NCBI GenBank assembly: GCA_016748015.1
Contig: JAAOMT010000523.1
Span: 186,001 to 250,000, forward strand
DNA from: Geosiphon pyriformis uo1
Lineage: Eukaryota > Fungi > Glomeromycota
Length of the DNA stretch: 64,000 bases
Reading direction: 5' to 3'
The notes beneath the pieces were generated by a model. It was not told the origin of the DNA. It saw only the letters and a program-made list of their open reading frames with translations, and did no database searches. This document shows positions 3,365 to 47,378 of this stretch, piece by piece (positions within the stretch are counted from its first letter, which is position 1; the number at the start of each line of letters is the position of its first letter). Both the position numbers and the translations under genes were made by a program.

Positions 3365-4373
3365 TGTTACCAGAGATTTTTGGTCTCTTTTCTTAAATGT
3401 TATTAATGTCTGTTTGTTTTAAATTCACGTTTTCTAGAAATAGTTGAACCTCCAATAACTGAATTTATTTTCAAATTATTTCCTATAATTTGAACTGCTG
3501 GGCTTATAAGTGAAATGACCAATTCTATGCCAGTTACTTTGTATAGTTACGTTGTAGTAAATGCCAACTTTTTTCCAGGAATTGCTCATCTGGAAACTCA
3601 CTAAAATGTGTAGTTACTTTGCTGTGAAAGTCAACTCTTCTACAGAAATCTTGTCTGTAGACTACCCTAATGATTACAATAAGAAAATAAAAGAAAATAA
3701 AAGAAATGTAAAAGAAATTAAATTCTGTCAAGGGAAACGTTTTCTATCCAGGCCTGGAGTCACTAATAGTTTACTGAAATTGGTAGTTAATCAATTTTAA
3801 AACGTTAGTTGAGTTTTGGGAATTTTCCAAGTGCAATAATTAAAAAATTTGGTTTTTCGAATTATTTAATATTTATTTTTTTTTGTGTGTGTAAGAATGG
3901 TTCTAGTGATAAAATCTAAAGTAAGATACATTTTTTTGAAGAGAAAAGCTCTTCTTTTATACAACTTGTTATAGTACTAGTCTATAAACTTGCACTTTTT
4001 TTCTTTGCTCAAATTTTGGTGAACTAAAGATACATTTTGATGAATTACAAGTTATTTTGCTGAACTATTGATTAATTTGGATGAACTATTCATAATTTTG
4101 GCAAATTTCTATAAATTTCGGCAAATTTCATATAAATTTCGGCAAATTTCTGTAAATTTTGGTGAATTTTAGAATGTTACAAAGTTTAGGGTATTGTGTA
4201 ATTTGATCATCTTACTTTCTGTTGTACTAATTGGATTATTAATTGAATCGTAATATGTGATAAATTGATTGAATAATAAGTGATAATTTGGATTGATATT
4301 AACATGTTAATTACTGATAGGAATTATAAGGATAATTTCATGCTAATTAATAGCTAAAATTCTACTGGTAACA
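3365..4373 (-). repeat. 3' LTR of element B
   Basis: Direct repeat of 13314-14321, adjacent to the PPT (plus strand taacttcctcctt, 4374-4386). aaatttcggc tandem array at 4093-4170. Confidence 0.96.
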
Positions 4374-13313: not shown

Positions 13314-14321
13314 TGTTACTGGAGATTTTTGGTCTCTTTTTTTGAATGTTGTAAATGTTGATTTGCTGTGAATTCATGTTTTTTAGAAGTAGTTAAACCT
13401 CTAATAACTGAATTTATCTTCAAATTATTTCCTATAATTTGAACTGCTGGGCTTATAAATGAAATGGCCAATTTTATGCCAGTTATTTTGTATAGTTACA
13501 TTGTAGTAAATGCCAACTTTTTTTCAGGAATTGCTCATCTGGAAGCTTACTAAAATGTGTAGTTACTTTGCTGTGAAAGTCAACCCTTTTACAGAAATTT
13601 TGTCTATAGGCTACCCTAATGATTACAGTAAGAAAATAAAAGAAAATAAAAGAAATGTAAAAAAAATTGAATTCTGTCAAGGGAAACGTTTTCTATTTAG
13701 GCCTGAAGTCACTAACAGTTTACTGAAATTGGTAGCTAATTAATTTCAAAACATTAGTTGAGTTTTGGGAATTTTCCAAGTGCAATAATTAAAAAATTTG
13801 GTTTTTCGAATTATTTGATATTTATTTCTTTTGTGTGTATAGGAATAATTCTAGTGATAAAATCTAAAGTAAGATACATTTTCTTGAAAAGAAAAGCTTT
13901 TTTTTTATATAACTTGTTGTAGTACTAGTCTATGAACTTGCACTTTTTTTTTTTGCTCAAATTTCAGTGAACTAAAGATACATTTTGATGAACTACAAGT
14001 TATTTCACTGAACTATTGATTAATTTGGATGAACTATTCATAATTTCGGCGAATTTCTATAAATTTTGGCGAATTTCATATAAATTTTGGCGAATTTTTG
14101 TAAATTTTGGTGAATTTTAGAATATTACAAAGTTCAGAGTATTGTGTAATTTGATCATCTTACTTTCTGTTGTACTAATTGGATTATTAATTGAATCGTG
14201 ATATGTGATAAATTGATTAAATAATAAGTGATAATTTGGATTGATATTAACATATTAATTACTAATAGAAATTATATGGATAATTTTATGCTAATTAATA
14301 GCTAAAATTCTACTGGTAACA
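13314..14321 (-). repeat. 5' LTR of element B
   Basis: Direct repeat of 3365-4373; differences are mostly transitions. Confidence 0.96.
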
Positions 14322-17300
14322 ATGCTTTGGAAAAAAACCAAGAGTTCTGACTAGTTCTACAGGACATGTAGAAAGCATATAATTTGGTTGGCTGGAAACA
14401 TCTCAAAAATAGTTTGATCAGAATTAAGATGTGTAGCAAATTCATTCGTTTTTTTGGCAATATTCACAATAATCATACCAACCAGGTTATGACAGATTTC
14501 GGTTTGATGGATGGTTATCATGTACATGATGGCCTGGATCAGGAAGAAGTTTTCTCCCTCCTTTTGTGGCAAATATTTTATGATTCTTTGTTGTGTAAAG
14601 TCAAGTATCAGAAAAGTGTATATGGATATATGGGCTGGACATTTTTTCTTTTTTGCTGCTGGCACCTTCGTGAATGATACAATTTGGGTTGGTAGCAGTC
14701 AAAGTGCTACTCAACATATTCTCAATATTGCCAGTAAGTTTTTTCAGATCAATGATATCTTAATTAACAATAACAAAACAGTGGCAATTCCTATCAACAG
14801 CAGGGTCAACAATCCTTCTCTTTCTATCAGTGGTCTACCTATTTCAATCACAAAAAAGAGGAGTCTCATAGATACTTGGATATTTTTCTTTCAACTGAGA
14901 GCCTTTCTAAACCTAGTTTGATGAGAGCGCATTCAAATGTTTGTTTTTTCACTAATTTGGTATTGAAAAAAGCTGTCTCAGATAAACAGTTTTTGTATTT
15001 GGTTTTGGTGGTTCTCCATCCTATTGTAAACTATAGAACACAGTTTAGCTTTGTTTCTGTTGGTGTGTGCAACAAATGGGATGCTTTGATTCACAAGGAC
15101 TTGAAGCTAAAATCTGGTCTTCTATGGGACTTTCCTAGTGATACAATTCATTACCCCTTCTTTTATGGTTTAAAATCTTTTTCACAGTGTTAATTTGAAG
15201 GTAAGATTGCTTCACTTATTAGTTTTGCAAACTCTGATGGGATTTTGGGACACTTGTTTAGTTACAGGTCTTATGACTTATAGATTCTGTGTTAGTGACT
15301 TGTCCATCTATTGGTTTCCTCTGCTCATATTCATGTCAATGTTTCCAATAATTTCTTAGCTGGTATGGTTCACATTTTTTTTGACTGCAAGTTGTCTTTG
15401 GATGGCTCTTTGGCCAGCTCTTTCTGGTTTCATAGTGGAGTACCTATGTCTGTTGTTCTTGGTGAGTCTTTGTTTTGCAAGTTTTTATCTTCTCTCTGGT
15501 GTTATGGTGTCGTCTTTGTGGACCAGCTTTGTAATTGTTATGGTAGTGTTTTTAGCTGACACACCTTTAAGCAGTTGAAGAGACTGGACTCTTGTGGTCC
15601 AGTTTCTGAGTGGTTCAAACTTTTTATTGTATTTCTTGTGGCTTCTTGTTCTTTTTCTTCGACATTGGCTGGTGTTGGCCCTCTGAACATTTATTGTTCT
15701 GATGATTTTGTATCTGTCTGTGATCGTTTTTTCCAGGTTGGTGCTGATAGCTTGTCTGTGTACATGGATGGTTTATTGAAAAATTTGGACATGATTAATT
15801 GTAGAGCTAGAGCTGCTGCCTTTTTTGAGAACATTAATTTGGGTTTGGATGTCAGTGTTCAGGGCTTAGTGTTATCCACTTTGATAGAACTGTAGGCTAT
15901 AGTGTTGGCTCTAGAGTGCATGCCTACAGCTTGTTCTGTTTATCTGTTTTCAGATAGTCAGACAGCTTTGGATGCTTGCAGATCGAAGTCTGACTTAAGA
16001 TGTCCTGATTTTTACAATCAGTGTTGGGTCAAGTGCCGGCATATTAGGAATGTTATTTGTAGTAAGAATTTGAGAGTTAAATGGCACAAAGTTAAGGGCC
16101 ACTCTGGTATTTCAGAGAATGATTATGCCAATAGCCTCACTAATGCTGCATCTCTCTCCGGTTGGTATCTTCCTTCTCATATTAGTGAACATTTTTTGTT
16201 GGCGGATGGTGGTGTTGTTTCTGGTAATTCTAAGCATTTTGTTCATGATGTTTTTCATACTGTTTGTTGTGTGTATTGGGAGGTCGGTTCTGGTTCTGGA
16301 TTTCTAGATGGTGATTTGCATTCAGATGTTGATTGGCTTTGTTCTTTTGGGGTTTGGCACCCTAATTTGCATATGGCCACTGGTTTTACTAGCAGGCTGA
16401 CTGCTGATACTCGAACTTACTTCATGAAGGCTTTGCACTGTCAGCTTTCTGTGGCTGTTCAGAAGCACATTTACAATAAATATTACTCTAGTGTTCTGTG
16501 TCTGTATTGTGGTGAGGTGGAGGTATCTGATCATGTGTTTTCTTGTGTAATTAATAATTCAGGTCATTGTCAGGTCTTGGAATCTTGTATGTCTTCTTAG
16601 AGAGTACTTTCTGGTTTCTCTCTTCCTTCTTTGGATGTATTGCAGCTGTTGTCAACTTGTGCTTTAGACTTTTCAGTTTCTTCAGCTCTTTTCAAGAGTT
16701 TTGTTTTTAATGGATGGCTTTAGAAGATCATTTTCATCTTCCATGATCCAAAAATTGCTGGTGTTAAAATTTTTGATTTTGTGCAATCTATTTGTCTTGC
16801 TTTCAGGAATAACATTTGATTGGTCTGTGCTAAGCATTACACATTTATGGAAAAAAATGGCCTGATTCCTATAGATAACTTGATTTCCATCTTGGTTTCT
16901 GGTTTGGTTTCTGGGTTTTTGACTGGTATAATTAAATTGCTTGGTATTGCTGAAGCTTTTGGTGTCTGTTTTGGCTTTCACAAGTCTTGTTCGTTTTTTT
17001 CAGGTATTGGTGACCTGGTTTCTGTCAATATAAGTGCATAGTGTTGTCCTGACTGGTTCAAGTGACTGGTCACATGTAGAAAATGCATGATTCACACTTA
17101 GTTTAGATTATTTTCTTAATGTATAGTTCTAAATGGTGTTTAGACTTCATTCATTAAATCAATAAAAAAAAAAAATTAATTACCAAAAATTAAATTAAAA
17201 AAAAAACAACAGTTTACAAAAATGCTTTTTTTATATAATATAAACATAGATATTTATTAACTATTAAAAAACACTTTTTTTGGTTTTAAGTAAAAATCTA

Positions 17301-17989
17301 AAATAATATATTAAAAGTTGCTATTATTATATTAAAGTTTTAAAGTTTTTAATAATAAATTAATAATTAAACTACTGTTTTTTTATTGTTATTTAAATAA
17401 TAAAAAAGATTAAAACAATATTATTAATTGAAATTTAAATTATAATTAATGTAAAATTAAACCAAAATAATTATTATAATTAATTAAAAAATCAATTAAA
17501 TTTTAATATTATTAATTATTTTATTAATTATTAATTTTTATTTTGTTAATTTTGTTTTTTTATTATTTAAATTATTATAATTAATATAATATATTTTTTT
17601 TTTATTGATTTTTTAATTTTTTTTAAGCTATTTTTTTCAATATATTTTTGTTATAAAATTAAATACAATAAACATTTTTACTATTAATATAATTAAAAAA
17701 TAAAATAAAATAAACTTGTTTTAATGATAAAAAAATATTATTAAATATGTTTCTAGTAAAATAAATAAAAAAACCAAAAAATTTAGTATTAAAACATTAA
17801 TATTATATTTTTTATTAATAATTTTAGAATAAAAATAATATATTAAATTAAAAATCAAGAAATATTTTAATATTTAATAATAAAATAGTTATTTCTTTAA
17901 TATATAATATTATATTAACAAATTTTTGCTTTTTGTTTAAATTAATAAAAAAATTTTAATAATTAATAATAAAATAGTTTTAAAAATAT

Positions 17990-18790
17990 TATTTAAGTAA
18001 AAAAACAATTTTTTTTATTAATTAATAAGTAAGATCTAAATATAACTTAATATAATATATTAAACTAAATAATTTAAATTAAGTATAAATTATGTATTAT
18101 CTATATGTAACCAGTTACTTAACTAGTTAAAGCAATATTATGGTTTTATATTAATATTAATAATATTATTAATACTTAAAAAAAATAAACAAAACTTATA
18201 TAAGCTAAAACAGATACTAAAATTTTTATTTAAACCAAGTAATTTTATAATATTAATAAAAAACAAAAATAACAAACCAATAACAACAAAAGGCAAAAAA
18301 CTATTACAGAAAATTAAATCACTTTTTTTTAATAAAACTTTATATTTAATATGTATTAGCTAAATTTCTTTATAGTAAGTCATCTTTAAATTATACACAA
18401 AATTCACAATTTTATTAATAATACTCTTAATATTTTTAAATATAACAAAAACTTTTAAATATTAATATTTAAATACTAAGTTTTTATATAAAATAATATA
18501 TAATATAATATCTAATGTAATTATTAAAAGTAATTAAAAAACACAAAATTTAAATTAACAAAAACCAGAAAAAATTTTTCATAATTTAATATAAAAATTC
18601 AATAAACTTTAATAAATAACAAAGTTTATTATACCAAAAAAATAATAATCTAAAAGTTTGATCTTTTTATAATGTAAATACAAAATATTAAGATATTTAT
18701 TATTAAACAAATGCTTGTAAACAATTATAAGTAGATAATAATACAAAAATTTTATAAAATATAGATACAAATTTGTTGTCTTACTACTTA
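17990..18790 (-). mobile_element. Hypermutated LINE 3' end relic, inverted relative to 16380-17175
   Basis: ttaatacttaaaaaaaataaacaaaacttatataagctaaaacagatactaaa (~18170) aligns to ccaatacctgaaaaaaacgaacaagacttgtgaaagccaaaacagacaccaaa (reverse complement of ~16960-17010). 3' UTR motif at 18100-18140. Confidence 0.8.
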
Positions 18791-20717
18791 TATATCTAAT
18801 TATTATATAAAATTAATTATAAAAAACATAATTAATATATAATAACATAGAATTAATTAATAATAATATAAAATAATATAAAATAACATAAAATATTAAA
18901 TTATAATTAATTATAATAAAATAATTTAAAAAATAATAAAATAATAAGATTTAAAACGTATTTTATAAAACAAAAAATATAAATATACAAATAGTTTTAG
19001 TTTAAAAAAACCAAAAAAAAATACAAAAATAATTTAATATTATAAAAATTTATTATTAAAAAACAATAATAAATTCTATTAATTATAATTAAATAGTGTA
19101 AATTAAATTGAATATAATTAAAAGCAATTATAATAACTTAACTAAATATTAACTATTAAAATTATTATTATTATTATTATTATTATTATAAGTATTTAAA
19201 ATGTCTTACTATTTTTGTTTTTTATAAAAAAACTTTTTATAAATATATTATTTAAAAAATTATTAAAAATTATTTAATATATTAAAAACTAATATTATAT
19301 AATTAAATATTTATAACAATATTTTATTAAAAATTTGAATAAGTTTATTAATGTAGTTTAATAAAAAACAAATATGTTTTTAGTATTTAAATTTTTCTTT
19401 AAAAATTTTAACTAAATAAAAACAATTTTAGTTTAATATCTTAACAATTATATAATATAATTAATTTTTATATGTATTTAATAATTTTATATAAAAAACT
19501 TTTTAATTTAAGTTATTTTAATATAATATATATTAAATATATTAAAATAAAAACTTTAATTATTTGTTTTTGTGTATTTTAATATTGTTATTTAAAAAAA
19601 AATTTAAAAATAATATTAATAAATAAATAGCTTTGTTAAATTATTTTGTTATTAAATCTTAAATTTTATTAATTTTTAATGATATAATTATAATTAAGAA
19701 GTTTGTTTTTAAAAATTAATATAAAATTTTTTTAAAACTATTTAGTATATTATAGTTTATATATAAAAAAAATTTAATAATAAATAACAATTTTGTTTTA
19801 TAATTTGGTAATTAATAAATTTAAAATCTTTACTTATAAAAAAATATTAATTATAATTTATTAATGTATTTTAATTTAATAATAAATTTTATAAAGTTTT
19901 TAAAATAATTAATGTATTATGTTTAAATATTATATAATATAATCTTAATTGGTTTAATAATTGGTTATATATAAACAAAATATAAATTATATTTATTTTA
20001 TTTGCTGTATTATAATAAATAATAATTAAACTATATTTATAAGCTTTTAAATTATTGTTAATATTTATTTTTACAAATTTTGGTTTAAATTTAAAATAAT
20101 TAATTAATTAAAAAACTTTTATTTTATAAATTTGTTAATCTGTTTTTGTTTAAAATATAATATTTTTATAAATTAAATATATATATATGTATATTAATGT
20201 TAAATATTTTAAAATAATTTGTATTTTTAATTTTGCAAATATTTGTTTTAAGTTAAACATTTCAATTATTGATATGTTAATTAATACATTTTATCTATTA
20301 AATATTATTTTAAGCAGTTCAATAATACAAGTGTATTATTTCTAATGTAAATGTGTAACAAAATGATTTTTAATCATAACAATAATTGTATGTCAATAAT
20401 AAATGATAAATATAATTTAGTTCCATGTAATGATTGATTGCAAAACAATAATACTAATGATTGTATATTTTATTCAATTAACAGCATTTTGAAATCCACC
20501 CGGCTCAGAGTTTGCTATAATTATTCCTGCTAAGGTCTTTCCAAAGAAAATGCATATTTTGGAAAAAATCAAGCATACGAAATTCCCATTCCAACCCAAA
20601 GTAAATTTACACACCATATTTTACCGGTTTCACAAAATATGCAATAAAGAAAATAACAGAACATATCCTAAATTGTACAATAACAAATCCACAAATACAA
20701 ACTATAAAGATAAAGGC

Positions 20718-22584
20718 TTACTTACGTTCGGGCCAATGGTATTCCTGAGCGGGTCTTTTATAGCCATGTTTGGTCACAAACTCATCCAGGCCTTTGGGTC
20801 CACGGGACCCAAAGGTATAAGGCTCAGGTTTGATCTTTTCTTTATCAATTTTATGCAAGATTGGCGTGAAAATTTTCCAAGCGGCATCCAATTCGTCGTT
20901 ACGTACAAAATTAGAATGATCTCCTTTTAGCACGTCCAAAATCAGTGCTTCATATGCGTCAGGGATCTTTAGATCTGAAAAACGACGATGGTAGGTAAGG
21001 TCGAGCTCAGAAATCACCGTGTCCATTGAGAGACCGGGACGTTTATTGTTGAATTTCATGTAGACAGCTTCCCCAGGTTGTACCCGGATAACTAATTCAT
21101 TGCGAGCCACTCGCTTGAATATATTTCCAGGCACATCATGAAACTGTATGCGTATTTCCGTTTTCGATTCATTAAGACCTATAAAAATATAAAAGTGAAT
21201 GCCTGAAACCAAATTTATTGATGAATTTATTGAAAACTATGTACCTTTTCCGCATTTCAATATGAATGGGACACCTTCCCAGCGATCATTATTGATCCAA
21301 AGAGTAGTAGCTGCAAAAGTTGGGCAGTTGCTGTCCTTCGGAACTGTTTCGTCTTGCAAATAGCCTTTTACTTTGCCATCTTCTGACGGGCCGTATTGGC
21401 CAAGGAGGGTATCTTCAGGCTTTGCTGGGGGAATACACCGAAGTACTCGAACCTATAAGAAAGTAAGATGATGAAAAATCAACGGAAAATCTTCTTAATT
21501 GACAAACTCACTTTTTCATCTCGGACATCTTCAGCATTCAAAGACACAGGCCTTTCCATCGCAACAATACTCAGTATTTGAAGGAGATCTAGTTGAAGAA
21601 TATACAAAGAGAAATAAAGACGACATGAAAAAAGAGTGACGAGTGGCATACTAACTCAATTTCATGTGATCTAAAGAATCCAAAATTGAAAACCTACGGT
21701 TTTGCATCACGTCACGAATTATTCCGAATTCATCAAAATAACCCCCTCGTCCTTCCGTTCCAATTTTTTCTTTGAAAGTTATTTGAACATTGGCAATGGA
21801 ATGCCGATTCCAATTTGAACCAAAAAACACGTTTGCGAAACGGATAATCAAGATATTTTTGACCATTTCCTTTCCGAGATAGTGATCGATTCGATAAATC
21901 TATAGAAAGTAGAAGGCAAACTAATATGACAACCATGAAACACTTTGCTATCGAAATTAAATCGATCCCACCTCATCTTCTTTCCATAGTGGAGCCAAAG
22001 ATTTGGCTAATTCGCGAGAGCTTTCCAAGTCCATACCAAAGGGTTTTTCAACAATTAATCGGTTAATGCCTCTTTTAGAGTAGACGTTTTTCTTTATACC
22101 TGTTGCAACCGCAACAAAGACACTTGGTGGCAATGCCATGTAAAATACGCGATTTTTGTCAACGTCTTGATTGCCCTCAATTTCAACAATCGCTTTATTT
22201 AATCTTTGGTAGTCTTCGTCATTGTCATAAGAACCAGATATGTATGTGCATATTTTAAGAAATTCAGGAATCTTTTGGTTGTTACCCTCTAATGGAGTTT
22301 TGAGATAAGCGGATATACGTTCATGAAATTGAGCAAGAGTTAATTTGGAACGCGCATAGCCTATAATTCGTGTACTTTCAGGGAGAAACCCATTATAATA
22401 TAGACCGAAAAGGGCAGGATAAGTTTTTTTCTTAGCAAGGTCACCAGAAGCACCAAAGACTGTTGGGGGAAAGTGATAAATCGGAGAATTTATGTATTTA
22501 TTGAAAAATCAAACCGATTTATAAAATGTATCGCTTACCAACAATGGTGGTGATTCCGGTAAGTGGAAGCTTTTGACTTTGCAT
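20718..22584 (-). CDS. ZWF1: Glucose-6-phosphate 1-dehydrogenase. Exons ~22584-22539, 22459-21972, 21899-21698, 21588-21512, 21452-21245, 21178-20718
   Basis: [44 protein letters not shown] and AWKIFTP motifs, with GT-AG introns. The extreme C-terminus could include one further small exon. Confidence 0.97.
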
Positions 22585-22766
22585 ATTTTCTGGCTTCAAT
22601 GAAAGCGACGAAACATTGCAGTCTAAAGAGGAAACGCCGCGATATTTATATGATTTAAATAACAATAGGCTGAATAATCATGGGAATAATTTTTCGCCGA
22701 TGACTGATCACGTGCTTGCTAAAACACATTTATTCCCATATTTTGACTGGGAAAGTAGGTTTCTTT
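22585..22766. promoter_or_regulatory. Putative bidirectional promoter (182 bp) between G6PDH and the BTB gene
   Basis: Head-to-head ATGs. tataaata on the minus strand ~22643-22650 and TCACGTG E-box at 22708-22714. Confidence 0.6.
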
Positions 22767-23821
22767 ATGGAAAAGTTATTTACCGTTATAGTCGGAGGCC
22801 GTAGTTTTTCTCTTTCCGAGTCAAGGTAAGAAAGATTTGGTTCATGATATTACATCTTATCCCATTTAGCCCCTAACCTCTGGGATTCCTTTAAAGCATT
22901 CGCCGAGATGCACCTAATTATTTTACAGCAGCCTTTCTTGGTTCATTCTCAGAAACTTCAACTCAACTCCTTGTAATTGATCGCAATCCGATTCTTTTTC
23001 AATTAATTCATGAACACTTGCAAGGTTATGATATTTTTTCGTTGCCTACCTCTAGTGGAATTTCTTCACGGGGACAGTTAGACGAATGCCATAATAATTT
23101 ATTACTTGATGCCCAATATTACGGATTATCAGGACTAATCAAACAACTGGAAGAAATATATAAACCAACAAGATATACATCTCGGCACACATACCATAAT
23201 CCATTTTTAATGCATAAAAAACATCTCGCCTGCAACTTACGTGACCTTGACGTACAAAAACTTTTACTAGATGATTCCGGATTTTTGGTGTGGCAAGATC
23301 CTAGTTTACCAGATGCCAAAAAGTACGGTCTTCATATTCATGCACAAGAATGTATACTTGCACTTGGTCTACACCGATCCGATGAAGTGGTCAAAGTTTC
23401 ATTAGAATTTCATGATGTTCGTGATATCAAAATAATAGAAGAACTGACTAACCATTTCGGACCACAAAAGATCAAGTCAGAAAAAATTGCCGAAGATAAA
23501 GTTAAAATTAGCGCGATACTCAAAGGCAAGACGGATATTTCAGATGTCTTTCTTGATGTTGATGATATTCCGTGCACTCTTTGGGAATTACTTCATTTTC
23601 GTGATTACTTGGTTGATATAAATGTAACAGGACCAAAAAGACAAAGAATGTTGGAGCTTGATAATATTATTTATAATGATTGGGTTTTTGGTGATAAAAT
23701 TTACGGACGATTTTACGTGGTTGATATTGACTTCACATTGCCACCTCTTTACATGCATCGAGCAAAGTTAATGAGTGAACAGCGGTGGACGCGTGATTTA
23801 CGATTTGTAAAATCTTCTTGA
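22767..23821 (+). CDS. BTB/POZ-domain protein. Exons 22767-22825 and 22897-23821
   Basis: Spliced N-terminus MEKLFTVIVGGRSFSLSESSIRRDAPNYFTAAF...IDRNPILFQLIHEHLQGY...LLDAQYYGL is typical of fungal BTB proteins. Intron gtaag...ctaac...aaag. Confidence 0.85.
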
Positions 23822-24271
23822 GTCTAGGTTAATATACTTTTTGTATTGATCATATTAAACTTATTCTTGAAAGCTAAAATTGGATAGTGTAAAGGTATCG
23901 GAATTATTGACCATGGTTCATATAACTGCGATTGTTGATTTCAAATCAATGGGATTTATTTCCATTTGAATAAGCCCCTCATTATTATCGTCTTTCTGCA
24001 CAGTATTTTAATTTAAGGATTCGTTTCACTAGTTGCCTTTCTATAATATCCTATGAAACTTTCCCAAACACAACTGCAAAAGTCCCAGCATAATGAATAG
24101 AATGTTTCACAAATTGATGGGTGCATGTGCGTAAAATGACACAAAAATGACATTTTCACATATTAAAGAAGAGAGCTTCAAAGGCCCCCACCAGAATTTT
24201 GGTATAATATCGTAAAAGACTCGGTTTTTCTTGTCAGGTCAACACGCTGAAATTTGACTTTATATTTCAAA

Positions 24272-26688
24272 ATGGCAGAAAGAATACGTTTTAGAGCGAG
24301 GGCGTCAAATTATTTAAAAACTAAAGTAGGGCTTAATATCGCCCTAACTTGTGAAGAAAAAACTAATAGTAGGGTGCTAGGCACCGATCCAAATGATCTC
24401 CATGTTCCGTTATTTGCTGAGCCCGCGATGGGCAACGATTCTACAGTTGTGGTTGGAGATCAAAACTCTTTACCTATCGAAGCGTTGGCAGAAATGGAAC
24501 AACAATGCATCTTAATACCCACCTATGCATTTCGTGATCAGAACGGAGGTAAATCAAAGCTCATTTTGCAAAGGAAAATGATAATGCCGTTTGCATCATC
24601 ATTGTGGAAAATTTCAAAGTGGAATGTCGTGATTTTTTTAAAATTTGCAATACTTGAATTATTAATTCGGATTCCACTATTGTAACAGCTTTGGATGAAT
24701 GGACTGTCCGCGTTCGAGGTTGGGCATACGCGACTCGAAGAACAAGTCGTAAACGAAAAATCATGATGGGTAAATCATAATACTTTATTCCATGTTAATT
24801 ATCAAAAATAATCTTTTAACACTCTTGATCAAAATTTAAAAAGGGGTTGCGCGTCGAATAATGGTCAAAGATGATCAGCAAGGAAAATATCTTGAGGACC
24901 GATTTGGCATGTTTTTAACCAAGAACCTTCGTGATCAAGAGTATACTGTAAAAGTTATTGGACTTGCGCATCCATCACATATGAAAATTGGTGGCGATCC
25001 AGATTCAGATGATTCATCCGAATCTGGGAGTAATGAGGCTGATGAAAAAACTTTAGTGGAGAGTGAATCAGGAGAAGATAGTCCTGAAGAAGATATTATA
25101 TCATTAGAAAAAGGTTCTCATCCATCCCCTCCAACGATTCATGTCACAACGAATACTGGACATTTTGAGGGGATCATTAAGATATCTAATGACCTTGTTA
25201 AAGAATGGATTTCAAAAAGAAATAAAGAATGTATTTCAAAAGGAAATAAAGAATATGACGGGTTTGGAAATCACATGCGATTATTAAAGCTACAGGCTCG
25301 AAACCTAGGAAATAAAAATGGTAGGTAAATATAGATCTCAGAATTTACTTATTTATTTTAAAAAGTTTCATATTGAAGATACTTATGGTGTATTTATGAC
25401 AATTTCGTAGCTAGTTCAGTACTTGGTTATGCTGACCTAATCGATGCCGAAGGGATTTCAATTATTTCGGTATATTTAATCGATTTATATATTACTATTA
25501 AACGTTTGAAACTCAAAGGTTTTTAAAATTATTTTTTAAAATCAAATAAGGATATTGATGATACTATTAAAGAGACGGATATATCTAGTGGGCCGCGTGC
25601 AATTATTTCGAACACTTTTTTGAAGGACAGTTTAGAGGTGAGTTCGAATCTCGTGTTGTTTAATTCGTTTTATCCTTCTCATAAATTTCTACATATCATG
25701 GCAGGTTTCTGATATGGCTCTCCGTTATTTGGAATGGGTAAATACAATAAGGTTTCTTCTTCACCTTGAATTTTTCCAATACTAGTAGCAAACTCATTTT
25801 TTATCATTCTGAAAATTTCCATTATCAGTATCAGAAAGGTGCATCTATTCACTATGTTTCGAACTCACCTTGGCAATTATTTCCAACACTTAAACTATTT
25901 TTCGATGAAAAAAATTTTCCTCCGGGTTCGGCTCATTTGAAATTTTATAATGATCTAATCAAAAGTATAACCGAGAATACCGGCCAAAATAAAAAAGCAG
26001 CGATTCGGCAAATAATCGAGGTCAGCATTTTTTCATCTGAAATCGAGGATATTTCCAAGATAATTAGAACATTGATTGATATTTTTACTACTTAGGATTT
26101 TCCTTTGCGAAAGTTTATCCTCATTGGGGATAGTGGTGAAATCGATATGGAGATGTATGTTAAAATCTTTGAAAGCATTTGTGTTAAGCAAAATTTTGTA
26201 AATTCGAGTATTCTAACTTTCTATTCTCGATAATTAGTTATTCTAGCATCGTCACCGAATTTCCCAAAAGAATTTTGCATATCTTTATACGTGATGTTTC
26301 CACAAAACGCCTTGAAGCTCAACCTGGTAAACGATCTCGATCATTTCCATTTATTACTCGACGTACTTCCTCAGGAGAATCTTTTCGTCTAGCCAAGACA
26401 ATGCCCAATCTGCACAAATCTTCGCCAAATGAATGTGAAGATGATGTGAGTTTATTCACGGGTTCAAAAAATTCATCTCAAACTTCAACCCCGTCACAGG
26501 AATATGAAGGTTTTGATTTCCTGTCCCCTTTGCAAATCTTTCAAGAAAGAGTCGAAAGAATCCGGAAAGAGGTAGAATCCTTTGGAACCGAATTTACGTT
26601 GTTTAAAGAAGGGAAAGATTTGCTAGGCCATGCGAAAGTTGACCAAGCCTTTGAGGAACTATCAAGACATGGATTCTGTACCTTTTAA
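24272..26688 (+). CDS. APP1: App1-like phosphatidate phosphatase, multi-exon
   Basis: Spliced catalytic DxDxT 'IIS|DIDDTIK' (~25460-25570), 'HYVSNSPWQLFP', 'LIGDSGEIDME' and 'IFIRDV'. GT-AG introns, first at 24549-24688. Confidence 0.85.
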
Positions 26689-29600
26689 TCAAAGAAACTC
26701 AATTCATTTTAATCACTTGTTTATACTCATAGATTTAATATTTACACACTAGAGAAACTTTGTATTTATAATTTAAATAGTTATATATATGTTTGTAATA
26801 ATTAGAGATATAAATCGTATCTAAAAGAAATGAGTTAGTGATATTACATAAAGATCGGAACACCTGTATTTATAGTTGATTATCTTTGATGACAGCTGTT
26901 GTTACCAATCAAAGTATCTTTTTACAAGATTTTTAATAAAAAATATGTTAATTCAATTATTTAAAATAATAAAGTTTTTATTTCAATTAACAAAATTTTA
27001 ATATTCAGATATTTATATGTGCAAAATTAAAGCTTAAATTAAAAATTAAATTTAAAAAACTTTGATTAATCATGTTTAAAAATATTTAACACCATTTATA
27101 CCAGTTTTTTAATTTCATAAATTTTAAATAAGTTAAAAAAATGCTGTATTTTTTATTATATTAAAACTTAAATTATTGTTGTTTTTATAATTTTTTTGTG
27201 TTAAGCTTTTAATTTGGTTAATAATATTTAAATTTGCTTACAATAAATAATTAAACAACTTTAAACCAATTTTACCAATTTTAAATAAGTTAATTTATTA
27301 TTTTTAAAAACTTTAAAGCTTTAACATATTATTTTTTAAATACAAAATTTCTAATTAAGATTATATTAATTTTTTTATTGGTATTTGTATTTGTATATAG
27401 CAATATTAAATCTTTTAAATATTAAAATATTAATAAGTTTTTACAAAATATATTAACAAATTTTAATATTTATTTATTATGTTAATTTTTATTTAGTATT
27501 AATAATACATATAATATATAATATATAATATATATTTTTAATCTTGATTTTATTATATTTATTACATATATTTTTTTAATAAACTTTTTTTTTTATCAAA
27601 ATTCTTTAAAAAAAAAAAAATTTTGAAAAAAAGTTTTTTATTTTGTTTATAATTTTCTCAATATTTTATAAAATACAATTTTATTTATTTAAAAACTTAT
27701 AACTATTAATAATAATAATATAACCAAAAAATTTTGTAGAAAATATTGTACATAGCTTTATTAAAAATAATTTTACTTAAAAATTAAAAAAAAGTAAATA
27801 AAAATATTAAAAACTTGAAAAATAAAACTGTTTTTTTTTAGCTAAACAGCAAAATAATTGTTTTTGATGTTTTTAATAATATAAAAAAATTTTTAAGTAT
27901 ATAATAAAAAATCTATAATAATTAATATTAGTTTTAATATTAATAGTAAAAACAAAGCTTTTTTTAATTCCAAAATAAATACTTTTAAAATAAAAAGAGT
28001 AAATATTAAAAAATTAAAGATGTTATTATTAAATGCAATTTATTATAATACTGAAAATAAAAAAATGTTTTTTTTTTGTTTAAGTCAAATTAGTTTACTT
28101 TTGTAATTATTAAAAAAAATTGAAAACTGTTATTAAAAAAATTTTATATTTTAAATATTGATTTGTTAACTATTAAAAAAAAACTTAATAAAAAATATAA
28201 ATTGTTAAAAAAAAATTATTAATAAATAAGTTTAAAAAAACTTTTATTTTTTTAAAATTTCAAAAAATTTATAATATTAATTAAAAATAAAAAGATATTT
28301 ATAAACAATAATTTCAACAAACTGATTACTATTAACTTAAATTATAATTATTAAAAAAAATTTTATAAATATTTCTAAAAAAGCTGTTTTTTTAACTTTG
28401 TTTAAATTTGGTAAAAATATATTAATTTAATTATAATTAATTAAACTATAATAAAAAACTGTAATAAAAAACTGTAATAAAATTTACCAAATTAAAGCAA
28501 ATTAATTTTTTAGCTTTTAAATAGTTAATATTAATTGGCAAAAATTATGTTTATATTATTAAAATTATTAAAAAGTCCCTGGGAAGTAACGGAATCAGAG
28601 AAAGAACAAGAAAAAAAAGAAAAAGAATCTAAAAATCAAGAATTTACTTACTAGAACCTGATCTCAGAGAACCCAAACATTGAAACCCCGAATTTCCAGA
28701 CTCAGCAAAATCTAAATTTAGAAAATCTGGAAATTGAAACTCCAAATTTTTAAATGCAGCCAAATCAGAACAACCAAAACCCTAACTTAATTAATCAACA
28801 AAACTTATCTCCTGGAATCATTATTAATCAACCACTAGCCGAACCCATATGACAGCCACCCCAACAAAATTATCAGCCACCTGTACCACAACAACAACAA
28901 CAACAAATGGCATATGCACCAATCACGAAGCTTAATAAATTCACCGGCAAAGAAGACAATGCCCAAGTCTAGCTGAATGATGTAGCTAAAGCAATTACAG
29001 CCAATAACTGGGACAATGCTAGAGCCATGTAAGCAATTCCCTACTTTCTTCAGGACACCACTGATGCATGATACCAAAGCCTTACCATTAAACCCTAAAA
29101 TTTTAACAAATTTAAAACCAAATTCTTGAGGTACTTTAATAACAATAATAGCATTAACAAGTTAGCCAACACCTTCACCACAATCAAACAAGAGGAAACT
29201 GAAGCAGTTACCACTTACTTGAGACAGTTCCACAGAAACCTACACCAAATTCAAGCAATCCAAGCTGACTATTTTACCATGTCACAAATTCTAAACCAAT
29301 TCATCTGTGGATTGCATAGTAGTATCCTCCAATATGTATGCCCAATACACCCACAAACTCTCCAGGACGCAGTTACCAATGCATGAGATTTCGAAGCAGC
29401 TGAACTAGAAGCCAATCATGCTCAAGCCGTAAATTTGGTCATGAATGGATCATTTGAATTGGATTCCAAATTGAAACAATTTAGTAATTTAATTAATCAG
29501 AAATTGGAAAGATACTTAGCTGACAATCATACAATATATCAACCACCACAATGACGCAATAATTCTGGAAACACAGATTGTTTTCAGAATCAGTCATGTC

Positions 29601-40100: not shown

Positions 40101-40990
40101 TCTGCCAAAGACCTACCAACTGCATTTTGATTGACTTAATAACACCAAACTCAGATAGTGCAGCATGTACAGTCTTAATTGATGTTCTAACTGGAATATT
40201 TTTCACCACCACAGTCCAATTTGAATGTCCAGAAGATTTTTTGAGATCAGTGTTTACTAGAATCTTTACATTTTTTGCTATATTAAAAGCTTAGACCAAA
40301 CTCAATTTGGAAGTAAACATCACTTGGATAATCCCAGAAAATTTTAAAGGAGTAGAGACCTCTTTAAAACTATTGATTTTTGAAAATAATTTCCTAACTG
40401 CCACCAGCTTTTCTTGAGAGGATTTTCCAACCATCTTATTCAAACCAATATCTAAAGCAAATGATTTTTAACTGAAATGTCAACCAGAATTTTCAAGAGA
40501 AAAGAAAGTGTTAAGAGAATATCCAACAAATTATTATCACTATTATTAACCAAAAAATTAATTTTTCTCAGTGGTTTTCTCAATGCTCTTTTGGTCAGTA
40601 CTTTTGAATTCTTAAGTATTTAATCTGAATCTTCTCTAGTGAAAGCACCATCTTTACTATAATCAAAGCTGATTTCTTTAACCAAACACTTTTCCTCCAT
40701 ATTTACACTATTAGACTTGATAGTATCACTAGTCTCAAAATTCTATAAACAACCATTCAGCTCTTTAACAGAAATCTTTCTATTACTAATACTATTTTCC
40801 AAAGCACCACTTTTTTTTTTCTTTTTAAACACAACAAACTTGACACCAGTACCAAAACCAGAATTTTTAAGAGCCTTTTTCATGACAGTAATATTAGAGC
40901 CAACAATGACTTTGTAATCAAGCAAAAATAGTTTGGATTTATTATACTAAATGATAAAAAACTCCTTTCAAAAAAACTCTTTGACTCTTT
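37130..40990 (-). mobile_element. LINE 5' part: ORF1 (RRM + CCHC) ~40920-39088, then ORF2 APE endonuclease and start of RT 39091-37130
   Basis: ORF1 'VVKNIPV...EFGVIKSIKM' and 'KCKKIGHTSLSC'. APE 'TCNIR', 'TETKL', 'SGNFNE', 'IDYVF'. RT 'VVEDALEKNHEFWLVLQNMQKAYNSV' is cut by element C. Confidence 0.9.
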
Positions 40991-42036
40991 TTTGGAAATT
41001 TGAAATAAAGAAAAGAAAGAAGTTTTTTTATTTTTTATGTTTTTTTTAATATATTTTTTATTTATTAATAAATTTTTATTATAATAATTATAAAATTTTG
41101 TAATTAATATTTATTTGAATATTAATAAAGCTTTTTAAATAATTTTGTTTTACAAATATTAAATTTTTTTCAAAATACAATTAATATATTAGTAAATATA
41201 AAAATTAAAAATTGATTTTATTAATATATAAATATATAATAATTCTAAATTTTTCTAAAAATAATTATATAATACTTATATAAATAAAAAATAATTTGTT
41301 TTTATATATTTTATTTTTACTACTTTGATAATTATTATAAATAATAGAGTAACTAGTCACATATAAAAAAACATGAGCTAATACTTAATCTAGAATCTTA
41401 TATAATTGTATTTTTTTAGGTAATAGTTAAATTGTACTTGTAAAATACAATAAAAATAAATAAATAATATTTTTTAAAAAAATTTTTATAACTTAATAAT
41501 ATTAATTAATTAATTAATTAATTTAAAAATTTGTGTATTTAAAATTTTTTAATAAAATTTTTTATATAAAAAAACAAAATTTCAAAAATTTATTGGTTTT
41601 TAATAGTTAATATTAATATTTTTTGTTTTTTTCTAATGTTTTTTGTTTTTTAATAGGCTATTCAATTTTAATAAGTTAATTTTATGCTTATAATATGTGT
41701 TTTTATTAAATTATTTTATAATATTATATTTTTAATAAGTTAACAATAAATAATTATAAAAAAAAATTAATATTATATTAATAATTATAATTAAAAATAA
41801 TAAATTTAATAATTATATTTTTGGTATTTATAGATATAATTTATAATTTAATAAATTTATATATTTAATTTTTATTTTTTATTTTTAATAATATAAATTA
41901 TTTTTTTATTATTGTTTTTAATAGTATTTAAAAAATATTAAAGATTTTTTAAGTAAATAATCTTTATTTTAATGTTTAATACTATTATTAAAAATTAATT
42001 AGATTATATTAAAATTGTATTCTAATATTTACATAA

Positions 42037-43027
42037 TATTATAAGTTAACTTAATAAAGTATAATAGTAATGTTTAATGTTTTATATTTAAATTATAAAA
42101 CTTAAAAAAATTTTTTTATTATAAAAGATAAATCAGAATTATTAATTTCTAAAGATTTTTAATAAATGTAAATTTATCTGTAAAGTTTTTTAATTATAAA
42201 ACACAGAAATATGGTCTAATTGTTTGTAGTTTAATGTATGTGAACTATTTTTTTGAGTTAATTAAATATAATTGTTAGAGTTTGGCATTGTTTTTTTTGC
42301 TTTTCTGATAAGCTAACAAAATAAAGTTAATATTTAAACTTAAAAAAAGCTTCTAGACAGTCAATTTTTTTAATGTTGCCACTTTACTAAAAAAAAAAAA
42401 GAAGAAAAAAAGAAGAAAAAAAAAATTGAAAATAAGAAAAAAAAGAAAAGAAATTAATATTATTAATTGTTATAATTAAGAACAATTAATCCAAGTTATT
42501 AAGATTTTAAAGCTGTTTATGCTAAGAGTATCTGACTTAAAATAAAAATAAAAACATAATTAATTTGATTTTGACAACACAAATTTTAAGATTATATACA
42601 AGTAGATTAAATTATATTTTTATTTAATAGAGAATAAAAAAATATAAAAAAAATAAGATAAAAAGTTTTTTTTTAAGTTAGAAATAAAATATGTTTTAAG
42701 AAAATTAGTTTTTGTTTTCTGTTTTTTTTTTATTTGCTAAAAACTTCTTGTTTTTTATACATATTTTCTAGTTTTATAAGATTGCTTTTAATTATTTATT
42801 ATTACTAGTTATTACTTATTACTTTTGTTATTGCTTTATTTTTTATACTATAACTTGTTATTCTATATTATGGCTAGTTATTTTGTGTTATTGTGTGTTA
42901 TTTTGTATTATTCTGCATTATTACATATTATTTTGTGTTATTTTGTATTATTACACTTTTTTATTTTATTATATATTAATTATATTTTTTTTAATATTTT
43001 TAAATTGGTTTTTTTACTTAAGTAACA
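42037..43027 (-). repeat. Hypermutated solo LTR (family E)
   Basis: Collinear with 53722-54800 (e.g. agacagtcaattt...tgttgccact, tatgctaagag). Ends gtaaca, TSD ataa/ataa. Confidence 0.8.
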
Positions 43028-44752
43028 ATAATTTTTTTGAATTTAATTTAATTATTAAAAACAATATTATACTTTTTTACATGAAGTTTGTGTTTTAAAC
43101 TTTTTTAAATACTACTATATAAATTAAGTTTGCTAATTTACTTTGGTTTTTTTTTTGGTTGTTGTTTTTTATAATATTTTTATTAATGCTATTTTTAATA
43201 ACATTAAAATTGTTTTAAGTATTTTTGGTATTATTAAAAAAAAAGTACAGATTTGGTAATCTTTTTAGCAATAATAATTTTTTTTTAAACAATATATATT
43301 ATTATATATATAATTAATAATTATAGTATATATATAGATATATAGATTATTTTAGTATTTAAAAAAATAAAAAAAGTGTTAAATAAATTATTAAAGTAAA
43401 AAAAAATATTGCTATTATTATTTATTTTTGAACAAAAACCAATCTTGTTATTTAATTTTAATAATATTTATATTAACACTTTTTATTAACTGTTTTGTAA
43501 TAAAACCAGAGTTTTTTATTTGTTATTTTTAAAAAAAAAATTTTTTTAAAAGCTTAATAATAATTTATTTCTTAATTAAATTAAGCATTTAAAAATGTAA
43601 TTACACATATTTTTGTAATAATAAACAAAATTAAGAATACTGTAAACATTTTTTAAATTACAATTACAGTTTACTAAATTGAAAAAAAAGTTTATATTGA
43701 AGGTTTAAAAGTTAAAACAATTAAAAATATTAACCTAAATCTGAATGGCTGGTCACATGTAAAAAGTGCAAAATATATTTCATTTTATATCCTGGCATTG
43801 AAATAATTCAACAGAATTATATTCTTAAGATAATAAATGCTAATTCTTTAATTAAATCTATTGTACCATCTTCTTTTAAAAAGTATATATATATATTACA
43901 AATACAATATAATTTACAATAATTTCCCTAATTATAAAATGGCAAGATGATGACTACCCGACGAACGCGCGCAGGTTTCATGGAAAATGACCGACTAGCT
44001 TTCAAAATCTCTGGTAAAGAAAGCAAAAATGAATTGGAGGAAACTAAGCAACAATTAGAGAAAGAGAAAAAAGGCAATTTAAGTCGAATATCGCCTATAT
44101 TAATTACAAAAATCTTAATGGCAGCAGGAATAACAGCGACGATATTTATGGAGGAAGAAAAAAGATATCTTAATGCTGGGCAAATCGAAATGAATCTTTA
44201 ATTATAATCATTATCATCATCATCATCATCAATGGAATAACAAAGACCCTTACCACTCCTTGATTGTGTCATCCTTGATGATAGAATTCTAAAACCTTTT
44301 TCGTTAGTTGATTGGTGTAAAAGTGCGTCAGGCTGATGTCATGCAAAAAAAGAGGGCTCATTACAAATACCCCAATAACTTATCCATTCTTGATTTTATC
44401 TCTCTTACCCCAGTGTCAGTCTAAGTATCGTCATCATCTCTTTGTTCTTTTTTTTGCTGCCGTCACTCAACTTGTCATCACAAAAGAGTAACGTCGTCCA
44501 AAATAAAGGTTGACGAAACGCGACTCTTTTTTTTCATATTGGAAGAATACCTTTTCTCAAAAAGTTTTGATTTATTCGACAAAAGAATTAACCATCACCT
44601 TTTTTATACCTAACATTAGTGACTTTAGCTCCGCCTTGTTCTCATCTATAAGAAGAGAGATTCACGTCAACAGAATTCCCTTAAAATATCTTCATTCTAA
44701 CCCTCCGCCGCCTCCCTGTCGTGTAGTCAATCAAATAAAAAAGTCAACTGCA

Positions 44753-45095
44753 ATGACGCAAGACCTGCTTACGACACAAGCAATTAAAGTTGACGTAGAC
44801 GAAAGGTCAACCGTAACAGAAACTGACGATAGTTCTGGAACCGATGCTAGTGACCCGGAACCTCCGACAACGAGAAGCGGTCTTAAAAGAACCGCTCCTA
44901 TCGGTGGTGCTCGACAAGGTGATCCCAAGAGAAAAGATACAAGAAAAGGAACTGAAAATAAATCATTTTCAATAACAGAAAAAGAGAAGGTCTCTTTTAC
45001 TGACCCAAACTCAACTACGACTAATACGTTGGCTGCTAGTGCTGCCGCATTCCTTTCAACTGTACCTGCCCAAAATCTTGTTTCCTCCAAAGATG

Positions 45096-45137
<42 letters not shown>

Positions 45138-45853
45138 CTAATCATCATCACCATCATCATCACCATCATAATAATAATAATAATAATAATGAAGGAGCTA
45201 TATCGGCTGCAGCACCCATCTTAACAAATCAACAACAACAACAGTTTGCTGAGGTTATTTCCGCTGCCACAAATCTCGCAAATCAAATAAATTCTCCAAT
45301 TGCAGTTGCTCCCTTGCTTAATGGTCAATCAGGAATCTCTAACAATAGCTCCTTAGGTGTGGGAATTCATGCTGATGTACAAGAATTTCTGAGTCATCCT
45401 GCTGTCGCTGCAGCTGCAGCAGTTCAAGCTCAGGCCCAAGCACAACAATTACAACAGAGTATATCTGCTCAAAATGATTCAATTCAGTCGCCTACCGGTA
45501 GTGGTAAACGAAATAGCCAGCTTCGCAATATGACAAATGATGAACGTCGACAAAGAAGGCTACTGAGAAATCGTGTTGCTGCTAAAGAATGTCGACGTAA
45601 AAAGAAAGCTTATGTCGCTGATCTTGAAGAGAAAGTAACGCGTCTTGAAGATGAAAATACTCTTTTACGCAAAGAACTTGATGAGTTGAATACAAGATTG
45701 ACTTTGGGGGCCACGAGAATCGAAGAAAATAGTCGTCTTATCATAGAAGTGGAAGAATTAAATGCTAAATTGACACATAAAGGTCTAGTGCAGCAGGTTA
45801 AGAGAGACTCGGAAAATCATGAGTCCATCGAACCAAAGGCATCCTCGATTTAA
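44753..45853 (+). CDS. bZIP transcription factor (ATF/CREB-like basic region), apparently intronless
   Basis: RQRRLLRNRVAAKECRRKKKAYVADLEEKVTRLEDENTLLRKEL leucine zipper. First in-frame ATG at 44753. Poly-N/H/Q/A low-complexity tracts. Confidence 0.92.
45095..45190 (+). repeat. Coding trinucleotide repeat (AAT)n-(CAY)n-(AAT)n encoding poly-Asn/poly-His/poly-Asn
   Basis: Directly visible in the sequence. Confidence 0.95.
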
Positions 45854-46852
45854 TTATGATTAAGATCAATTTACCTACCTTCGCCATTTAATTCTCGAAC
45901 ATTATTCATATTATATTTCGCTTTGCATTCTATTATCACTGAAGCCTGAGGGGCAATTCTCCATTTTTCCATTCTCCCTTCCCAAAAATATTTTCTCTTA
46001 GTTATTCTTGTGATGCTATATATTTTGATTAAGAAGTATCATATGGTGGTCTTTCAAAAGCCATCGTTATCTTTTAGGTCATTAAAAAACTCTCATTTGG
46101 CTTACAGTCCGAGCTAAATTTTTTGAATTGGAATTAGCCCTATACTTTGGCATTACAATTTCTGAATCATCATCTCTTGTGAGGCTTATCAACCGAGACT
46201 CTGAACGGCCATACTTTGGTGATTGATCAATGACATTGACAGCATATAAACGTTTGTCAACGTTCAACGCGGAGGAAATGAACATAAGGTTCTTTGATTG
46301 GTGACTGACCGTGCCAAATAATCGGCCGTGGTCGGTGGGTGGATCGATTTTGTGAGGAAAAACTCAATTACCGAAAACGATGTTCGTTGACAAATAGATA
46401 GGAAAAGAATGTCTCTTGATATCGATCTTGAAGGATTTTTGGCCAAAAAACGGACATTTCGTCTTGGTCTTTTTTTTGAAAAATGCCATAATCGTAAAAA
46501 ACATAGCCCCAGCATTTTAAAGAAATTTAATCATAATTATTCTTGATTTTTTATTTACAATGCAAGTTTTGAACAGTTACTTGCAGTAAAAGCTGTATAT
46601 AAGGTATATTTAGGCTTATTATTTTTTAAATATAATGTGTAATATCATTTGAAAATAATAAATTAAAATATAAGAATTTGAATTATTATTAAAAAGATTT
46701 TTGTTTATTATTATTTTTAACATATTTTTAATGTTTACTTTTAATATTATTCTTTAAATTTTTTATAAAAAAAATCAGTATTATATAAAAAAATAAATAT
46801 TTTGCAAAAAAATTCTTAGCTATACACCTATTTTGAAAACTTCGCGAAAAAA

Positions 46853-47345: not shown

Positions 47346-47378
<33 letters not shown>

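Follow-up and report, generated by a model that had tools for sequence, protein, structure and literature searches.

The 64-kb window analysed here, that is, the whole stretch of 64,000 nucleotides from the fungus Geosiphon pyriformis, contains two gene islands (at about 20480-26800 and 43900-49300), each with an AT desert of 7-12% GC on either side. Between the deserts lie younger elements, both long interspersed nuclear elements (LINEs) and Ty3/Gypsy elements, with a GC content of 28-37%. Our main subject is the desert at 17176-20420, which an initial annotation had read as a LINE erased by C to T and G to A changes in all sequence contexts, in a manner resembling repeat-induced point mutation (RIP). 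We find that the transposable elements (TEs) of the window are subject to a repeat-restricted, cumulative C to T process that acts on both strands, removes CpG first, favours cytosines with a pyrimidine on their 5' side, runs to near exhaustion and leaves almost no insertions or deletions (indels). Our DNA statistics cover this one window; checks at the level of element families add proteins and short-read contigs.

An eroded LINE in the first AT desert

The desert and the LINE beside it comprise the following features (o/e, observed over expected; ORF, open reading frame; UTR, untranslated region; LTR, long terminal repeat).

17176..20420, no strand: AT desert 1; GC 0.09, 1 CpG, TpC o/e 0.43, GpC o/e 2.2; eroded TE relics
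18009..18863, minus strand: eroded LINE 3' end with the C-terminus of ORF2, the 3' UTR and an A-tail near 17995-18010; faces the younger LINE tail to tail
19931..20040, plus strand: eroded 3' end of a LINE, the second in this desert; score 83 (null at most 56)
14322..17175, plus strand: younger LINE, 3' part; poly(A) and RNase H (PF00075, E 1.6e-6); CpG o/e 0.15; stops at former W and Q codons
2626..3364, plus strand: upstream part of the younger LINE, split off by the LTR element inserted at 3365-14321

Because permissive self-BLAST gave mostly AT-rich chance matches, we compared desert and LINE with an asymmetric aligner and shuffled sequences. The collinearity that the initial annotation had described between the desert and the reverse complement of the neighbouring LINE end is borne out: positions 18009-18812 align to the reverse complement of 16367-17171 with a local score of 395, against 45 +/- 5 (maximum 68) in 200 shuffles and 39-83 for other stretches of the desert, and the asymmetric scan returns the same place. 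At the protein level, tblastn with 71 Geosiphon LINE proteins places 53 matches on the minus strand of the 18 kb bin (E down to about 5e-28, extent up to 18863), and a profile of Geosiphon LINE proteins covers 235 desert codons in a single frame (E 5e-56). Short-read contigs reproduce 17419-18076 (658 bases) and 18174-18481 (308 bases) with 0 differences, in a run that may be the window's own source. The LINE-assignable DNA amounts to only about 0.95 kb of the 3.2-kb desert (about 0.85 kb plus the 110-bp end at 19931-20040), while LINE-match scores in 17176-17995, 18813-19160 and 19190-19700 lie at the level of the shuffled null with the same aligner, so that the desert is recognisable as an erased LINE in this part of its 3225 bp, with about 2.2 kb unassigned.

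Across the 803 columns of the alignment between relic and neighbouring LINE we count 175 C to T or G to A differences, 24 in the reverse direction (T to C or A to G) and 148 transversions, with 58 C/G kept. Gaps take up 3 columns, in agreement with the few indels noted initially. On both strands, cytosines have been lost whichever base follows them, and older copies such as this one end as AT deserts, with about 75% of their C/G gone and the reading-frame register still kept.

Might the relic simply be an old LINE that decayed by ordinary mutation? The 148 transversions would speak for simple age, but their distribution does not. Differences between A and T fall on 23 of 135, 11 of 143 and 45 of 150 sites at codon positions 1, 2 and 3, and on 4 of 91 in the UTR (position 3 versus position 2, p 1e-6); such a concentration at position 3 implies that they arose under selection, between active subfamilies. 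C to T and G to A changes, by comparison, are even across positions 1, 2 and 3 and the UTR (60/90, 51/82, 40/75 and 24/37; p 0.40, in a test confined to C/G that were either retained or changed by transition), the pattern to be expected if they occurred once the element was dead. The near absence of gaps and the 235 codons held in one frame likewise argue against ordinary decay, and the codon-position test together with the spectrum of the LTR pairs below refutes it; we regard its chances as negligible. Transversions at position 2 of the relic (25/225) also run above the 0.02 per site that scaling from the LTR pairs would give, which means that the neighbouring LINE is not the relic's direct ancestor. 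The relic belongs to a different LINE subfamily and is not a copy of the adjoining element, to which it is only 57% identical.

The younger LINE has five stops in the region compared, four of which align to W or Q and the fifth to mixed residues. This agrees with the initial annotation, according to which younger elements combine CpG loss with stops of this kind and adjacent genes keep their CpG: CpG o/e is 0.02-0.21 in TEs and 0.97-1.03 in genes.

Each of the 71 homologues found for the RNase H frame of the LINE carries a G. pyriformis label, and many annotated hypothetical proteins of the species are fragments of this decaying family. Over 258 conserved columns, deviations in the 71 proteins number 1235 that are reachable by C to T or G to A, 185 by the reverse, 470 by transversion only, 129 mixed and 328 requiring several steps, these being counts of alignment cells from related sequences rather than independent events. 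Per opportunity, the corresponding values are 0.083 for C to T or G to A, 0.013 for the reverse and 0.007 for transversions; when only columns with 80% conservation or more are taken, 288, 57 and 180 deviations are counted. Replacements that are necessarily non-CpG are in excess, among them S to F (99), G to D (74) and also H to Y.

LTR pairs as internal clocks of cytosine loss

Two elements of the window retain both LTRs, which serve as internal clocks.

3365..4373, no strand: LTR B, left copy; ends TG...CA, target duplication of 4 bp with a single CpG C to T difference
13314..14321, no strand: LTR B, right copy; pair differences 74 transitions, 4 transversions
52188..52815, plus strand: LTR D, 5' copy (aligned part)
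62252..62845, plus strand: LTR D, 3' copy; after polypurine tract, cut by later insertion; pair differences 89 transitions, 4 transversions

Over 1008 sites in pair B and 593 in pair D, the two pairs together differ by 163 transitions and 8 transversions, a transition to transversion ratio (Ts/Tv) of 20, which lies above 4 at p 8e-9. Indels are few, and the proportional share of transversions and indels that, in the reasoning of the initial annotation, simple age would bring is not seen. For context scoring we took the C/G allele as ancestral, whereby CA/TG pairs are unmasked as old CpGs; 129 of 158 transitions with clean context then lie outside CpG. Non-CpG hits amount to 57 of 269 sites in pair B and 72 of 168 in pair D (together 129/437), CpG hits to 15 of 30 in B and 14 of 14 in D, the last figure being inflated as only differing CpGs are visible in D. 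Per copy of pair B, about 0.12 of non-CpG C/G sites and about 0.33 of CpG sites have changed, compared to 0.002 transversions per site, so that CpG is hit about 3 times faster than non-CpG, and non-CpG C to T still runs at about 60 times the per-site transversion rate. Plain CpG decay by deamination of 5-methylcytosine (5mC) is rejected on these figures, the excess not being limited to CpG.

Family contigs allow some of these differences to be polarised. Among the 40 of 712 places listed, 30 lie in LTR B and 15 on pair differences; setting aside 1 transversion and 1 unpolarisable place, 11 of 13 run from C/G to T/A and 2 in reverse. The places listed for short-read contigs of run X1 comprise 596 transitions and 92 transversions.

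Hits occur on both strands in all four LTR copies (13+18, 22+19, 20+24 and 18+24), with significant strand runs in one of them (p 0.017). The load of C/G loss rises from 0.12 in pair B through 0.27 in pair D to 0.75 in the desert relic, which, along with the mixing of strands, favours a gradual, cumulative course. A kilobase-scale gradient with distance to genes is not seen in LTR D, whose gene-near copy has 46 hits and whose far copy has 43.

The initial annotation had described C loss in all contexts on both strands. This is accurate for the 3' base, where, outside CpG, the pooled LTR pairs show CA hit at 53 of 184, CC at 23 of 72 and CT at 53 of 181 sites (p 0.88; fractions 0.29, 0.32 and 0.29, with CG at 0.66). 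It overlooks the 5' base: TC is hit at 68 of 161 sites (0.42), CC at 17/62, AC at 31/135 and GC at 13/79 (0.17; p 7e-5). Among trinucleotides TCA is hit at 32 of 70 and TCT at 29 of 65 sites, and TCG is the most-hit CpG (8/11 in pair B). Pooled desert alignments repeat the effect (TC 185/234 versus 295/459, p 6e-5). Relative to young TEs, cytosines in the deserts survive at 0.43-0.50 after RR, 0.35-0.40 after YR, 0.19-0.20 after RY and 0.10-0.11 after YY, a roughly four-fold fall from RRC to YYC, and no +1 effect was found in these survival indices; the effect at -1 is seen in the LTR pairs too, where the order at -2 is less clean (RR 0.15 versus YR 0.12 in B). TpC is accordingly depleted in the deserts (o/e 0.43-0.58) and GpC enriched (2.1-3.4). 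Given so clear a preference for a 5' pyrimidine, the process is not truly context-free.

Surviving C/G in all four deserts are concentrated in the motifs ACCA/TGGT, AGCT and AAAC (o/e 2.3-4.6), which amounts to a protective code more detailed than the purine rule at -1 and -2.

A 5'-side bias without a +1 effect is what an AID/APOBEC-like DNA deaminase recruited to repeats would produce, and the order YYC > RYC > YRC > RRC resembles the TC/YTC motifs of APOBEC3 enzymes. However, RC sites are still often hit (see AC above), strand-coordinated clustering is slight, and CpG is fastest. Editing of cDNA before insertion is ruled out because both LTRs of an element are hit, in both directions. We therefore consider a deaminase very unlikely. 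Geosiphon lives at the soil surface, and a preference for C after a pyrimidine could also point to ultraviolet (UV) light, with deamination of cytosine or methylcytosine in pyrimidine dimers. Yet CC to TT doublets show no excess (5 seen versus 5.05 expected), CT is not hit above CA, and ACA sites, which are not dipyrimidines, are hit at 8 of 37 in pair B. We reject a UV signature on the missing tandem excess and the spread of hits beyond dipyrimidines, and give UV almost no weight.

Genes, unique DNA and the other deserts

The remaining deserts and the two gene islands, which act as controls, are listed here.

26900..28600, no strand: AT desert 2; at 28278-28567, eroded sequence related to the LINE at 40002-40280
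40900..43800, no strand: AT desert 3; 3' ends of eroded LINEs, as well as a sequence related to 53813-54808
49400..52150, no strand: AT desert 4; eroded LTR (50528-50821) and LINE 3' end
20480..26800, no strand: gene island 1 (control); CpG o/e 1.03; includes G6PD at 20718-22584, minus strand
43900..49300, no strand: gene island 2 (control); CpG o/e 0.97; bZIP gene and a spliced 484-aa gene

Over the exon at 20721-21236, G6PD matches a protein of Geosiphon pyriformis at 100% identity, and the next matches come from other Glomeromycotina at 74-80%. The spliced 484-aa gene we take to be SF3A3/Prp9; one exon was scanned and has no Pfam match.

Unique non-coding DNA, in which the initial annotation would have expected a spectrum different from that of the repeats, keeps its GC and CpG, as far as composition can tell. 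The 13 introns of two genes (1076 nt, with the intron ends of G6PD fitted to the open frame and hence approximate) have a GC content of 0.276, CpG o/e of 1.09 and TpC of 1.13; an intron core that contains a microsatellite has a low GC of 0.12. Four-fold sites have a GC content of 0.25-0.37, and seven spacers and UTRs (2982 nt) one of 0.32 with CpG o/e 0.97. The spacer at 46565-46830 was left out of this pool, being desert-like itself.

Erosion of the same direction extends to the other deserts: of eight desert-to-reference alignments, all of them scored, C to T and G to A exceed the reverse in seven, and one short alignment has 12 of each. All four deserts adjoin a gene island, with younger TEs nested between deserts, an arrangement to be expected if the oldest insertions lie outermost. 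The excluded spacer, a mini-desert of 265 bp between two genes, has GC 0.14, no CpG, TpC 0.56 and GpC 3.7, and was found to have no match to the TEs of the window; if it is the relic of a short repeat, the process reaches small isolated inserts.

Could these patterns arise with no targeted mutator at all? Ordinary cytosine deamination that escapes repair in heterochromatin, or an AT bias of the whole genome that selection or GC-biased conversion counteracts near genes, would give C to T in all contexts limited to silent DNA. Such a scenario gains from the compositional nature of our unique-DNA control, which is not a direct mutation rate. It also gains from the 300 bp on the gene side of each of the four deserts (20121-20420, 26901-27200, 43481-43780 and 49401-49700), where GC is 0.146 versus 0.082 in the interiors, although these edges were picked after the gradient was seen and the rise may reflect either protection near genes or admixed unique DNA. 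Against it stands the roughly 60-fold excess of non-CpG C to T over transversions, which implies that other damage is being repaired. Moreover, introns and 4-fold sites, older than any TE of the window, persist at 25-37% GC; introns show no TpC deficit; and CpG loss is specific to TEs and so points to methylation. We judge the absence of a targeted mutator to be improbable.

Candidate mechanisms and known systems

Taken together, a repeat-restricted non-CpG C to T hypermutation with a 5'-pyrimidine signature is well supported as a real process in this Glomeromycotina fungus. The initial annotation had proposed repeat-directed hypermutation beyond CpG, in a lineage with no established RIP; what stands of this is C:G to T:A hypermutation that goes beyond CpG and is confined to repeats, outside the Dikarya, and RIP itself is one candidate for its cause. 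We favour a chronic mutator linked to chromatin or methylation because changes accumulate gradually on both strands, because CpG goes about 3 times faster, and because erosion continues down to 7-10% GC. The published accounts cited below by PMC number were available in part, and statements about them refer to those parts.

As to the cause, we lean somewhat towards a DIM-2-like enzyme that chronically methylates the cytosines of silenced repeats, with the marks becoming fixed as C to T changes. A new insertion would be packed into heterochromatin and methylated there by a CG enzyme (of DNMT1 or DNMT5 type) along with an all-context enzyme (of DIM-2 type). Deamination, spontaneous or enzyme-assisted, would then combine with poor T:G repair to turn methyl marks into T. 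The AT-richer relic would keep attracting heterochromatin, and decay would go on after similarity to other copies has been lost, while nested insertions would push the oldest elements outward until they came to lie as deserts beside gene islands. The components have precedents: Dim2 drives mitotic C to T change in Zymoseptoria repeats (PMC8016269), DIM2 methylates CG and non-CG sites without base-specific contacts at +1, its flanking preference being left open in the sections available (PMC11315935), TEs of Phycomyces bear CG and CHH 5mC (PMC11258239), and arbuscular-mycorrhizal (AM) fungi are stated to hold DNMT1, DNMT5, DIM-2 and RID (PMC8298701).

Several points weigh against a DIM-2-like cause. 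Both the Geosiphon methyltransferase and TE methylation are postulated from the sequence of the window and from other fungi. Zymoseptoria Dim2 mutations fall at CA in more than 98% of cases and spare CG (PMC8016269), which is not the Geosiphon pattern, and a 5'-pyrimidine preference of DIM-2 was not found in the parts of the literature examined, including PMC11315935. One LTR copy has strand runs. The assumption that C/G is ancestral was checked for 13 of 74 differences, with 2 contrary, the LTR results come from two pairs in one window, and unique DNA was controlled by composition, as noted, rather than by a measured mutation rate.

The main alternative is true RIP, that is, a homology-recognising, premeiotic process dependent on RID and/or DIM-2, which would here have to be weak per cryptic sexual cycle and to act at 5'-pyrimidine sites instead of CpA. 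A Ts/Tv of 20, the sharp borders within which the changes stay confined to repeats, the composite RIP index of desert 1, which is positive (+0.32), and strand runs in 1 of 4 LTR copies would all suit it. RID is stated to be present in AM fungi (PMC8298701), and a 5'-T preference is known from the TpCpG RIP-like pattern of Pucciniomycotina (PMC3318451). On the other hand, CpA is not preferred and strands are mixed in 3 of 4 LTR copies. The TE families are very abundant, with 20,014 short-read contigs on 5.5 kb, 5,093 of them at least 95% alike. RIP needs roughly 80% identity, and the relic, at 57% identity to its neighbour, has nevertheless lost about 75% of its C/G, far past that threshold. 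Nor is the internal pol of element D (118 of 347 C/G sites changed, subfamily drift included) less mutated than the linked LTRs (0.27). Finally, a 633-proteome survey that includes Rhizophagus lists no Glomeromycotina Masc1/RID in the parts available (PMC5751038). Many weak rounds of RIP could still yield the observed picture, and true RIP, though unlikely, is an explanation we take seriously. A homology-directed, RIP-like defence in Geosiphon with a 5'-YYC code of its own, invisible to RIP indices based on CpA, seems to us doubtful.

A close experimental parallel to the favoured methylation-linked decay is Dim2 of Zymoseptoria tritici, where C to T makes up more than 95% of changes, is found in methylated TE regions only, extends beyond CpG and needs no meiosis (PMC8016269). 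In Geosiphon, similarly, 163 of 171 LTR differences are transitions and non-CpG C to T is confined to TEs. The two differ in context, CA dominating and CG being spared in Zymoseptoria (PMC8016269), whereas in Geosiphon CA, CC and CT are equal, CpG changes most quickly and the context bias sits 5' of the cytosine. They differ also in kind of evidence, Zymoseptoria being an ascomycete with experimental proof and the Geosiphon case being known from sequence alone. With RIP of Neurospora and other Pezizomycotina, Geosiphon shares C:G to T:A change in repeats, AT-rich relics beside untouched genes, and stops at W and Q codons (PMC12543289; PMC4352252). Single-copy genes and spacers are spared as in RIP of this type, by composition, but Geosiphon has no CpA preference, accumulates changes gradually and keeps abundant TE families. 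In outcome, then, the Geosiphon process resembles RIP or Dim2-driven decay, and it fails the CpA or CA test of both. The composite RIP index is positive in desert 1 only, and the three LTR copies and the LINE tested give -0.18 to -0.66 despite the Ts/Tv of 20 in the LTR pairs, so that screens based on such indices would miss young elements.

Outside the Ascomycota, TpCpG hypermutation of Pucciniomycotina TEs likewise shows a 5'-T boost of C to T but needs a 3' G (PMC3318451), a restriction that does not apply to Geosiphon, with 129 of 158 context-scored hits at non-CpG sites. Methylation restricted to TEs is described as CG in Rhizophagus irregularis (PMC8647823) and as CG plus CHH in Phycomyces (PMC11258239); something comparable in Geosiphon would explain a CpG o/e of 0.02-0.2 in TEs and about 1 in genes. 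The accounts of those two fungi speak of silencing, not of erasure of non-CpG cytosines, in the parts available (PMC8647823; PMC11258239). RIP signatures are stated, second-hand and in the part available, not to have been detected in Gigaspora margarita or Mucoromycotina (PMC8647823). For Zoophthora radicans (Entomophthorales) a RIP-like process outside Dikarya has been claimed from dinucleotide indices, with caveats by the authors (PMC11105155), whereas the evidence in Geosiphon is based on alignments and concerns Glomeromycotina and another context. A screen of 1,239 genomes found 130 strong RIP cases, all in four ascomycete classes, which it concluded to have a CpA preference in common (PMC12543289), and Geosiphon does not occur in its 19 text supplements. 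CpA, CpT and CpG signatures are known in Dikarya (PMC4352252). Outside Pezizomycotina, Masc1/RID appears in the available parts of the PMC5751038 survey only in a few Taphrinomycotina and Agaricomycotina, and a review table, as far as it was available, has RID in Ascomycota only (PMC13297926). We found no report of C to T erasure of Geosiphon repeats in the literature searched, which took in few subscription journals and did not cover the genome description of the species. New here, and unreported in that literature, is the 5'-pyrimidine signature, in a lineage where RIP has been reported as undetected.

Repeat-directed mutagenesis is held to be a trait of the Dikarya. The window shows a mutator comparable to RIP in strength, working in a fungus that belongs to the AM lineage and whose young elements standard indices score as negative. 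A mitotic process would amount to sex-independent destruction of transposons in fungi long thought clonal, and would reveal which flanking bases a non-CG methyltransferase prefers; a premeiotic one would have a bearing on sex in AM fungi. Were a homology-directed RIP-like defence to be true, RIP would be older than the split of Mucoromycota and Dikarya and, if also premeiotic, would have left the genomic footprint of cryptic sex in an arbuscular-mycorrhizal lineage. LTR dating and TE-derived "gene" models in the Geosiphon genome would be distorted by cytosine loss of this extent.

Some further observations concern the elements themselves. The 11-kb LTR element inside the LINE (2626-3364 / 14322-17175) itself contains an LTR of another family, at about 12368-12723, and from 62846 onward a further element, starting with TG, cuts into the 3' LTR of element D. 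A dUTPase domain (PF00692, E 6.5e-17) lies in a Ty3/Gypsy element at 8748-9203 on the minus strand, and the frames 31646-32481 and 57487-58167 resemble Ty3/Gypsy dUTPase by similarity of their translations only. That Ty3/Gypsy elements carry dUTPase deserves mention in a genome with such heavy cytosine loss.

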